Positions 29,601-32,600 of a stretch of DNA of 41,037 bases are shown here, in pieces. Every line of letters begins with the position of its first letter. The first letter of the stretch is position 1. The DNA is from a virus (lineage: Duplodnaviria; Heunggongvirae; Uroviricota; Caudoviricetes): the IMG/VR virus record IMGVR_UViG_2684623059_000003, positions 1-41,037 of that record; one strand, 5' to 3'. The position numbers are program-made.

Positions 29601-32600
29601 AGTGCCTGTAATGAAGTGACAAACTCACCTTCGCGCAAGATAAATCCGTCCGTGACCCGAGCATCCACAAAATTAATTAACGCAGCCCCATTCTTTCGCA
29701 AACACATAATGCGGTAATGACTAACAAGATTTCCATTTTCAACGCACACAGCATAGAGGCCATCTTCACAAAAAATTTTACGCAGTTCTTCGATGTTCAT
29801 CATCAGAATCCTTCCGGATAATTAGCTCTCCCCTTTAAGGGACCATCCCTCTTATCCCTGCGCGCTACTTAAGTATTTTTGATTCTATTCCGGCACCGTC
29901 CAGATCTTCAAACGCGTTGAAAATAAAAACAAAAACCCGCCGAAGCGGGTTAAGTGCGGGTGCGTTGAGGATGCCTGCCACATCAGAGGTGGCGAGGGAT
30001 TTCTCCCTCGCCGGGTCTCTTACTCCTCAGGTTCGTAAGCTGTGAAGACAGCGACCTCCGTCTGGCCGGTTCGGATTCGTACCTCGCAGAGGTCTTTCCT
30101 CGTTACCAGTGCCGTAACAATGACGGTTAAACAGATGACGATCAGGGCGATTAACATCGCCTTTTGCTGCTTCATAGCCTGCTTCTCCTTGCCTTTCGGC
30201 ACGTAAGAGGCTAATCTTCAGTTGTCGAGACATAAGACTGGCCTCACTTCGATTTATAGTCGGGTGGGGCTTTTCTCTATCTGCCTTTTGGTGTTCATGC
30301 CTGAGACAGATAGCCTCAAGCACCCGCAGCAATTCTACTTAACTATCCTTTTCCCGCAAATCGTTTTTATCCCCAGCGACAAATCGAATACACCACCAGC
30401 GCCACCGCCATTGCAATTCCCATCGTTGCGAATGCTTCAGGCCAGGTCATCGCAAAACATCCTCCGCACTTATCAGTTCGTTCCGCTTCAGGTAGTCCAT
30501 CGCCTTCTCCGGTAATTTGCAGTCTGGATTAGCTTTTTTCAGTTGACTGACCAGTCGTTTAACCCACATTGTTAATTCGCTAACCCGACTACTGGATGCT
30601 AGTAGGTTGTCGGCTTTACCCAGAATGACAGCACAGCAAGCCTCTTTGAGTACCCAGTCAACAGCGTCTTTCCATGCTCCGGTTTCGACTGGCGGATTTT
30701 CACGCTTAACCTGTTCATAGAAACGCACTGCTTTAATCAATCCTTCTGGTGTCAGTGGCACAGGTGTAGCGGTGAATAGAGGTTTAGGTGTTATCTCTGC
30801 ACGTTTTGCGTATGCTTCAACTGTGTCAGGATTAAACAGGATTATGTTTTCGCCGTATTCCCACGCTATCGGCTCTGCTTCCAGCGATGCCAGAGCAATT
30901 TTGAATAACTCACCCTCTACTCGTGCCACCCCTGAATTGGGGTGGCATTTCGCAATCGCTATTTTTAATTTAGCTTCTTCGATTAATTGCTCTTTTGTTA
31001 ATTCAGTCATTTTTCATTACCGCCCTTTCGGGCGGCCTCCTGATGTTTTGAGGGTGCAGGAATCCCTCCTGTTAAGGATTAAATTTTATTTACAGTGCTG
31101 AGATTAATTATTCAGATTTGAATTATGTTTTCTCTTTCACTTCACGCAGTCCTGATTGTTAATTTGGCTCACAGTACCACCTCCTGCAAACTTCCCTTCC
31201 AGAAAGCCAGCACGCGCTGCATAGTTTCGCTCTGACGGCACTCTCGGCAAATTATGTTCTGTCTCCTGTTGTAACGGCGTATCTCGCTATCTGGCAATGA
31301 ATAAACCAGGTCGGGGTCGTTCTTCTTTTTCACTGCCGCTCTCGACATTTTTTTGCAGGCTTTTATCCAGTCCTTACGAGCCTGTTCTGAAGGAAATATT
31401 CCATGGCCTGAACCATATAGCGTGCCACTAACTACCAGCTCTTTCGCCAGAACTTCTATCAGGTGTCTCGTTGCTCCGGTTTCATCCTCCAGTTGCTTAC
31501 GTGTTTTCCTCCCATCTCTGCGCACCAGTTCCACAATACGCGCCTTCAGTTGCTCCCGATATTCAGGTGTAAAAACGTTTCTCATAAGTGCCTCACCTTT
31601 CCGACACAACGCGACTGGAGGAATCGACAATCTGTCGGACAATATCCCGGTGTTTATTCAGCTCCCGCAGCGCGGCGCAGACGCGCTCCCACTTCTGGAC
31701 ATGATTTTTCGCCCGGCGCAGTTCGCGGTTTGCCAAATGCAGCGATGGTAAAATCAGGTCATCCGCCCGCGTTTCGGTGAACGATGGCAACGACTGCACA
31801 ATGTCCGCCACAGTTTCTGTTTTAATTTCTTCCTGTGTTACAGTTTCCTGTGCTGGTAACGCAACACCTGCTGGCTGAGGAAAGGCTTTACCATCAGTTT
31901 CCGTTACCAATGCGGCTTTCGGCTCTGCTGGTAAATTATCGTCCGGCATGCAGTAACGAAATTTACCGTTCTGATTTACGCGAATCAGGCGACCTTTGCT
32001 GATTGCCTGAGCCAGCGTTGAAGCCACTTTGCGTGATGTGGTACCGAACAACGTAGCCAGTTCATCCGCCGTTTGTGGTCCGCGTTGTTCAATCGTCGCG
32101 GTTAAATCGCACTCTGAGATTTTCGCTACTGTTGCTGTGGTGGTTTCTTCCGGCAGTTCTGCCTGCGCTGGCTGTTCCTGCTGAACGTTGTTATCAGCCA
32201 CACGCCAGGTGTACGCGCTTTTATCAACAAAACCAGCATTTTTCAGTTCCCATAGTTCGTTAAGCACTTCTTCACGACTGATATCAAGTCGCGCCGCAAG
32301 TTCTATGGATGTGGCTTTTCCCATTGCTTTCAGTGCGTCAAAAACAGTCTCCATTAAATTTTTTCTCCCGGTAAAAATTACTTCGTGATTCCTGGCTGGA
32401 CGACATTCTGGCGCCAGCTTTCCCAGTTAAAAGTCACCCAGCGCCCGCCGTTCATGGTCATGCGATCCATAATCCTCTCGCCGAGCAACGTTTTCATGGC
32501 CTCATAGTTCAGGTTTGTCAGCATCCCCATACTGCGCATCGATGCTGTCCGGCGATCAACAATCTGATGCAGCACCACCTGCTCGTTTTTCGTCTCACGC

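Follow-up and report, generated by a model that had tools for sequence, protein, structure and literature searches.

We analyzed a 41,037-nucleotide stretch of DNA from a caudoviricete virus (IMG/VR record IMGVR_UViG_2684623059_000003; "the window" denotes this whole stretch) and found that its minus strand carries a structurally complete hok/mok/sok type I toxin–antitoxin module, which is very probably the intact hokD allele of Qin-type lambdoid prophages and most likely works like the module of plasmid R1. This reading is carried by the sequence elements of the locus, two alternative predicted folds of its mRNA, covariation of the helices across related loci, orthology to hokD of the K-12 prophage Qin, and the absence of relBE. 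The element is of an ordinary, already known kind, which Rfam and Pfam detect and PGAP labels hokD. An earlier note on this DNA had described a complete module, and the toxin, mok, the antisense features, the tac (translational activator), ucb (anti-Shine–Dalgarno of mok), dcb, and fbi (fold-back inhibitory) elements, and the terminator are all present (Table 1); the interval given there, 29921–30450, also takes in an unrelated 27-codon open reading frame (ORF; 30450..30367) upstream of the hok promoter.

Hok, the overlapping mok frame, and a predicted Sok antisense RNA

The 51-residue Hok ORF and its Shine–Dalgarno (SD) sequence AAGGAG were found as the earlier note had described them. Hok matched Pfam family PF01848 (HOK_GEF) over 42 of 42 profile positions (E = 1.2e-23, 82.9 bits) and PHROG 251, "MokW-like host killing" (2.8e-33). 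Against the NCBIfam Hok models it scored below the curated cut-offs (48.5 bits vs 73), and PGAP nevertheless names the identical protein HokD. The protein sequence equals that of K-12 HokD, the coding DNA differing by two silent changes only, and overexpression of HokD has been reported to be toxic (bioRxiv 10.1101/2025.08.07.668861). A search for a second hok copy within the window found none. The mok frame likewise begins where it had been predicted, with an ATG at 30233, 58 nt upstream of the hok ATG; GAGG stands 8 nt before the mok ATG, and the 68-codon translation matched PHROG 37205 (1.4e-27).

On the plus strand, the proposed antisense promoter hexamers TTGCCT and TAATCT occur as such in the sequence, 17 nt apart, and the hairpin with UUUU that had been said to cover the mok start is predicted at 30240..30271 (-20.4 kcal/mol, z = -2.4). 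The predicted Sok RNA runs antisense to the SD and AUG of mok and lies inside the Rfam match described below. The hexamers, hairpin, and U-tract are positionally homologous to those of R1 and of sokW, the antitoxin gene of prophage Sp5, and the Sok -10 position is homologous to the sokW -10 that was mutated to abolish antitoxin activity (judged from primers YO-421/422, PMC8621323). In the 29-locus alignment described below, the columns for positions 2 (A) and 6 (T) of the Sok -10 and for the TTGCC of the -35 were invariant; the conservation of the -35 is ambiguous because it overlaps the region beside the hok SD.

Alternative folds of the hok mRNA

The comparison with Rfam that the earlier note had suggested gave an end-to-end match: the leader, 30325..30170 (-), aligned with positions 1–157 of the 157 in model RF01794, "sok", which is written on the hok-mRNA strand (122.1 bits, E = 1.6e-27; gathering score 59). 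The predicted mRNA of 398 nt had a minimum free energy (MFE) of -155.6 kcal/mol and a z score of -5.7 relative to shuffles; together with the full RF01794 match, this fold therefore places the module far beyond chance. Upstream of the leader, 6 nt separate the putative hok -10 from the mRNA 5′ G at 30325, and a -10-like hexamer (TAGAAT, TAAGAT, TACAAT, or TATAAT) stands 6 nt from GGGTGC in divergent loci as well.

Folding the leader to look for tac, ucb, and fbi, also proposed earlier, recovered all three elements. In both the MFE and the centroid structure of the full-length mRNA, the 12 nt of tac (GGGUGCUUGAGG) pair with CCUCAA-C-GCACCC at 29970..29958; in the MFE structure, GCCCCAC (30270..30264) of ucb pairs with the mok SD GUGAGGC (30247..30241). 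We also folded a 3′-truncated mRNA (30325..29972) from which the 3′ end had been removed up to fbi. In its MFE structure, tac nt 1–8 pair with ucb AAGCCCC (nt 54–60), the mok SD GAGGC (nt 81–85) pairs with dcb GCCUC (nt 115–119), and a hairpin presents the mok AUG. As predicted structures, these two plain MFE folds correspond to the closed and open conformers of the R1 model, in which tac/fbi and ucb/mok-SD pairing gives way to tac/ucb and mok-SD/dcb pairing (PMC9841398). A different segment, AGCCUCUUAC (30212–30203), was considered as ucb and rejected: in the terms of PMC9841398 it is dcb, and ucb is AAGCCCCAC (30272–30264).

Downstream of the hok stop codon, the hairpin GGCGAGGGA/TCCCTCGCC of the earlier note is present (30012..29991), but its designation as the fold-back element does not stand, as fbi proper is situated 20 nt closer to the 3′ end (29970..29958). 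The counterpart of this local stem-loop in R1 is the final stem-loop of the truncated hok mRNA, which shields that RNA from 3′ exonucleases (PMC9841398). The terminator reported after hok was confirmed at 29951..29934, followed by a T-run.

Covariation of the predicted helices

One scan of species-representative genomes yielded 53 loci encoding relatives of the window Hok. A tac-like 5′ motif was present in 38 of the 42 loci examined, as well as in the window itself, and nearly all motif-bearing loci had a complementary box 340–380 nt downstream. Changes in tac were matched in fbi: GAGGC with CCUC; GAGAC with UCUC (Kluyvera, Photorhabdus); GGGCGC with GCGCCC (Photorhabdus, Pantoea); and GAAGC with CUUC (Citrobacter youngae).

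We then placed the window MFE structure on an alignment of 29 loci from Escherichia, Kluyvera, Citrobacter, Pantoea, and Photorhabdus. Paired cells made up 80.3% of the total, compared with 37–46% when partners were slid, and 147 cells were doubly changed, compared with 54–66 for slid partners. The tac/fbi helix was 90.8% paired, with compensatory changes at positions 4, 10, 11, and 12; position 4 is U-A in 19 loci and C-G in 8, and positions 11 and 12 show G-C, G-U, and A-U pairs alike. Pairs with both sides changed numbered four in the Sok-terminator stem (helix 4, 94.9% paired) and four in the local 3′ stem-loop (helix 16, 89.6% paired). In the same alignment, AAAGCCCC of ucb was nearly invariant and GCCUCUU of dcb invariant. 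A duplex between tac and AGCCUC was dropped, its covariation being weak and inconsistent.

Table 1. Features of the hok/mok/sok locus, in window coordinates
Feature	Position	Strand	Basis
Putative hok promoter: -35 TTTGCG (30360..30355), 17-nt spacer, -10 TAGAAT (30337..30332)	30332..30360	-	Inferred from sequence
Full-length hok mRNA, ~398 nt	29928..30325	-	5′ end, RF01794 position 1; 3′ end, terminator
tac, GGGUGCUUGAGG	30314..30325	-	mRNA 5′ end; folds, covariation
ucb, AAGCCCCAC	30264..30272	-	Folds
mok SD region, GUGAGGC	30241..30247	-	Folds; GAGG invariant in 29-locus alignment
mok frame, 68 codons + TGA (30029..30027)	30027..30233	-	Overlaps hok out of frame
Hairpin around mok AUG (Sok target), AGUCUU...AAGAUU	30213..30239	-	Folds
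dcb, UAGCCUC	30207..30213	-	Pairs with mok SD GAGGC in truncated fold
hok SD, AAGGAG	30190..30185	-	9 nt before ATG
hok (hokD), 51-residue membrane toxin	30020..30175	-	Pfam PF01848; PGAP name
UACG at Tyr47 codon (TAC 30037..30035), candidate TadA adenosine-to-inosine (A-to-I) site	30034..30037	-	Tyr to Cys
Local 3′ stem-loop, GGCGAGGGA-GAAA-UCCCUCGCC	29991..30012	-	Fold
fbi, CCUCAACGCACCC	29958..29970	-	12 bp with tac; compensatory changes
Intrinsic terminator, AACCCGC-UUCG-GCGGGUU + U-run (hairpin 29951..29934)	29929..29951	-	Terminator scan, fold
Putative Sok promoter: -35 TTGCCT (30189..30194), 17-nt spacer, -10 TAATCT (30212..30217)	30189..30217	+	Sequence reading
Predicted Sok RNA, ~51–55 nt: 16-nt single-stranded 5′ tail, hairpin, U-tract	30224..30276	+	Folding

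Genomic setting and relation to K-12 Qin hokD

Family scans gave the minus-strand order Cro-like, YdaT, O-like, DnaC-like ATPase, DUF1627, DUF977, a 187-residue ORF, a 27-residue ORF, and hok, followed by Rem, a 92-residue ORF, DUF968 (YdfU), RusA, Q, two tRNAs, and holin; the repressor and DicF are on the opposite strand. Judged from this Cro-to-Q order, the position of the locus is equivalent to the nin region, where the earlier note had placed it, and the layout is that of prophage Qin. RelE- and RelB-like proteins were sought upstream of hok in Pfam, NCBIfam, and PHROG scans and none was found, in keeping with the claim that relBE is missing there.

From window position 30189, at the hok SD, through the 3′ stem-loop, fbi, the terminator, and rem, the DNA is identical at 681 of 690 positions (99%) to that of K-12 Qin hokD (relF), and both share the downstream synteny of rem, ydfU (DUF968), and Q. 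Everything upstream of 30189 is absent from K-12, including the hok promoter, tac, ucb, the mok start, and the Sok gene with its promoter. There, the end of relE directly precedes the hok SD and hokD is the third gene of the relBEF operon, whereas the window has a full leader, mok, sok, and the 27- and 187-residue ORFs upstream rather than relB-relE. In all, 4.1 kb of the window (30190–34318) is replaced in K-12 Qin (4290–6357) by relE-relB-ydfV-flxA-ydfW. The contrast with Qin hokD drawn earlier holds and is one between two states of the same locus, with relE-relB standing in K-12 in place of the upstream part. Besides the hok leader, mok, and sok, the 4.1-kb block missing from K-12 contains the 27- and 187-residue ORFs, the DUF977 and DUF1627 genes, the DnaC-like and O-like ORFs, and a portion of YdaT.

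Read from these alignments, the window carries an intact, autonomous hokD allele, and K-12 hokD is a decapitated remnant. Loss of components through genomic rearrangements has been described for some K-12 hok loci (PMC12214031). The window thereby offers an intact reference state for K-12 hokD/relF; in K-12, the promoter, tac, ucb, mok start, and sok disappeared together with the replication module of the prophage, and relBE-ydfV-flxA has taken the place of the lost segment. The intact and decapitated states are both frequent: among 5426 complete E. coli genomes, 788 hold a place covering at least 80% of a 651-nt query, and 1165 contain the relE-hokD junction; PGAP calls the gene hokD throughout these genomes and the sok RNA is unannotated. 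In other prophages, still other cargo directly precedes hok: O55:H7 CB9615, for example, has the paa adhesin gene there, and strain 602354 has a pair of nucleoid-associated proteins. The flank upstream of hok therefore has the look of a site at which cargo is exchanged.

Comparison with hokW-sokW and plasmid R1

The closest studied relative is hokW-sokW of the Stx2 prophage Sp5/phage 933W (Takada et al., 2021; PMC8621323). HokW and the window Hok share 47 of 51 residues (about 92%), and the locus of an Stx2-converting phage, which we take to be hokW-sokW although its record is not annotated as such, is ~86% identical to the window in DNA. The two loci agree in the sequences of tac, ucb, dcb, the hok SD, and fbi and in the position of the Sok -10, and both are lambdoid-prophage hok/sok loci with a conserved 27-residue hydrophobic ORF upstream. 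The differences lie in Sok and its target: the window Sok hairpin is 21–22 nt shorter than that of sokW, the Sok 5′ tail and mok start differ, and predicted duplexes between window and sokW partners reach -15 to -18 kcal/mol, compared with about -40 kcal/mol for cognate ones. Moreover, the upstream ATG is at -58 and out of frame in the window but at -57 and in frame in the Sp5-type locus, where it gives a 70-residue "MokW".

The R1 hok/mok/sok locus (parB) has the same series of elements (tac, ucb, mok SD, an out-of-frame mok of ~70 codons, dcb, hok, 3′ stem-loop, fbi, and terminator), the same mRNA length (~398 nt), and the same two-conformer logic, but is plasmid-borne, whereas the window locus lies in a prophage. 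HokW and R1 Hok are 44% identical (PMC8621323). Of R1, Qin hokD, and hokW-sokW, R1 alone has had 3′ processing, RNase III cleavage, and post-segregational killing demonstrated.

Proposed mechanism and its weak points

By homology, we infer where the transcripts of the window module end, that the mRNA is processed at its 3′ end, that translation of hok is coupled to that of mok, that RNase III brings about decay, and what triggers the module physiologically. A weak promoter would produce a stable hok mRNA of ~398 nt, locked by tac/fbi pairing, in which ucb would sequester the mok SD, so that neither mok nor hok would be translated and Sok would not bind. Slow 3′ trimming would remove fbi and let tac pair with ucb; the mok-SD/dcb stem and the mok-AUG hairpin would then form, making the mRNA both translatable and accessible to Sok. 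The short, unstable Sok RNA of ~51–55 nt, made from the convergent promoter, would pair across the mok SD and AUG, block translation of mok and hence the coupled translation of hok, and trigger decay of the duplex. Once Sok synthesis stopped, which prophage induction, prophage loss, or transcription shut-off might bring about, stored mRNA would be translated and Hok would depolarize the inner membrane.

Several observations weigh against this R1-like operation. Both promoters are weak, the hok promoter matching the consensus at 3 of 6 positions in the -35 and 5 of 6 in the -10 and the Sok promoter at 7 of 12 positions overall. A generic promoter scan with a 9-of-12 threshold called neither, as both fall below it, and we therefore relied on positional homology and conservation instead. 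The MFE structures have low ensemble frequencies (0.0006 for the full-length and 0.0003 for the truncated mRNA), and the mok-AUG helix (helix 5) was 52% paired across genera, a low value that arises because the hypervariable sequence misaligns. In addition, the intact chromosomal loci hokA, hokB, and hokC gave no post-segregational killing and no rifampicin response according to Pedersen and Gerdes (1999), as cited in bioRxiv 10.1101/2025.08.07.668861; structural completeness is therefore no proof of activity.

Possible roles of the module

The last of these points also speaks for a structurally intact but silent relic, in which too little active mRNA or too tight repression would leave the module without effect and linkage and recent prophage spread would keep it in place. 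The weak hok -35, uncalled by the generic scan, and the tolerance of a decapitated copy by K-12, with its junction in 1165 of the 5426 genomes, are consistent with such a relic. We nonetheless consider it improbable: no insertion sequence, frameshift, or broken helix was seen in the locus, every regulatory pairing is kept, with compensatory changes, the leader is intact in 76 of 80 viral contigs with exactly this Hok, and hokW-sokW, a close homologue, shows activity within its own prophage (PMC8621323).

For an active module, the earlier note had named prophage maintenance and abortive infection as roles, which are guesses. A main role in the lytic cycle, rather than in addiction or defense, is a reasonable possibility that falls short of probable: induction would remove Sok, and membrane damage by Hok would speed lysis and the release of progeny. 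It has been proposed for hokW-sokW of Sp5, where sokW RNA disappeared upon mitomycin C treatment, HokW increased in dependence on RecA, and deletion of the locus halved the phage yield (PMC8621323). In the window, hok is co-oriented with the Cro-to-Q early operon and no terminator is predicted between the 187-residue ORF and hok; therefore, early transcripts would meet the Sok promoter head-on, which would be in line with the Sp5 finding. However, the effect on release in Sp5 amounted to no more than a factor of two and was reported in one study only, and the window module is unlike that locus in its Sok body and tail and in its out-of-frame mok. We regard as possible, though less likely than not, that the module mainly serves addiction, by killing prophage-free cells, or abortive infection against superinfecting lytic phages that shut off host transcription. 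R1 hok/sok is cited as mediating post-segregational killing and T4 exclusion, and hok genes are about four-fold enriched in prophages; the same survey found no hok enrichment near defense systems, and the chromosomal loci for which it cites tests failed in post-segregational killing (bioRxiv 10.1101/2025.08.07.668861). The locus family could be used to ask what hok/sok does for a prophage, be it lysis timing, addiction, or defense.

A variable Sok/target segment on a constant toxin

As a textbook type I toxin–antitoxin module, the locus has small annotation value; only its hypervariable Sok/target cassette possibly deserves follow-up. Compared with near-identical loci, the window differed strongly only in nt 61–112 of the hok mRNA. 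Relative to a Shigella flexneri prophage (L007), nt 1–60 and the segment from dcb to the hok ATG were 100% identical and the coding sequence 98% identical, whereas the central segment was 34% identical with a 22-nt gap. We also compared 80 viral contigs encoding the identical Hok. The 76 with an intact leader carried 24 distinct central segments; of the remaining four, one has a tac leader left untyped by pattern match, two have the relE junction, and one is without the tac motif. Across 55 distinct mRNAs from viral contigs encoding 100% identical Hok, the mean pairwise difference peaked sharply at 0.16–0.33 around the mok AUG (window 30214–30265 (-)); in the coding sequence and the bulk of the remaining leader it did not exceed 0.04.

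Because helix 5 aligns poorly across genera, the mok-AUG hairpin was folded allele by allele, and nearly all of 17 distinct segments from the mok SD to dcb were predicted to fold into one nested hairpin architecture. Predicted Sok-tail duplexes ranged from -36 to -40 kcal/mol for cognate pairs and from -12 to -25 kcal/mol for non-cognate pairs, and co-resident loci differed in three of the four genomes checked. We tentatively suggest, as a reading that is more doubtful than probable, that the ~30-nt Sok 5′ tail and mok-start hairpin could form a fast-evolving specificity cassette, in which numerous mutually non-complementary Sok/target alleles sit on the same Hok in lambdoid prophages. If so, co-resident prophages could not cross-neutralize each other's toxin mRNAs, and the cassette would amount to an antisense "immunity type" for hok/sok. 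Our literature search returned no report of Sok hypervariability or cross-talk in hok loci, which is not proof of absence, and the newest Hok survey left Sok, Mok, and mRNA structure unanalyzed. The locus family, in which nature varies the Sok/target allele while the toxin stays constant, could serve for studying antisense-antitoxin specificity and cross-talk.

The window allele, with its short Sok hairpin and R1-like out-of-frame mok, may be rare. The upstream mok ATG lies at -58, out of frame as in R1, in the window, L057, and L010, and at -57, in frame with hok and giving a 70-residue N-terminally extended Hok ("MokW"), in L002, L004, L007, L012, L056, and L058.

Neighboring genes and other features

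The UACG at the Tyr47 codon of hok is of the type edited A-to-I by TadA in hokB, hokC, hokD, and hokE, and the surrounding TACGAA was invariant in 29 of 29 aligned loci; 6% editing has been reported for K-12 hokD mRNA (PMC12214031). A second UACG lies in hok at 30082–30079 (-).

Upstream of hok, neither the 27- nor the 187-residue ORF had a Pfam or NCBIfam match; the latter belongs to PHROG 660, of unknown function. The 27-codon hydrophobic ORF (MTWPEAFATMGIAMAVALVVYSICRWG, 30367–30450 (-)) is unannotated, and its ATG overlaps the stop codon of the 187-residue ORF (ATGA). Versions with 81–93% amino acid identity precede hok in other prophages as well, among them the Sp5-type phage.

None of the complete E. 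coli RefSeq genomes covered more than 74% of window positions 24000–38000 (~91% identity), and the prophage is therefore a mosaic, built from lambdoid modules that are widely shared. ARAGORN identified tRNA genes Thr-TGT and Gly-TCC (26503–26656 (-)) between the genes for the Q antiterminator and holin, a position occupied by tRNA-Ile and tRNA-Arg in related prophages. The DicF small RNA at 36462–36513 (+) gave a full-length Rfam match (76.7 bits), and window positions 36244–37923 were 82% identical to the K-12 dicF-dicB-ydfD-ydfE region.

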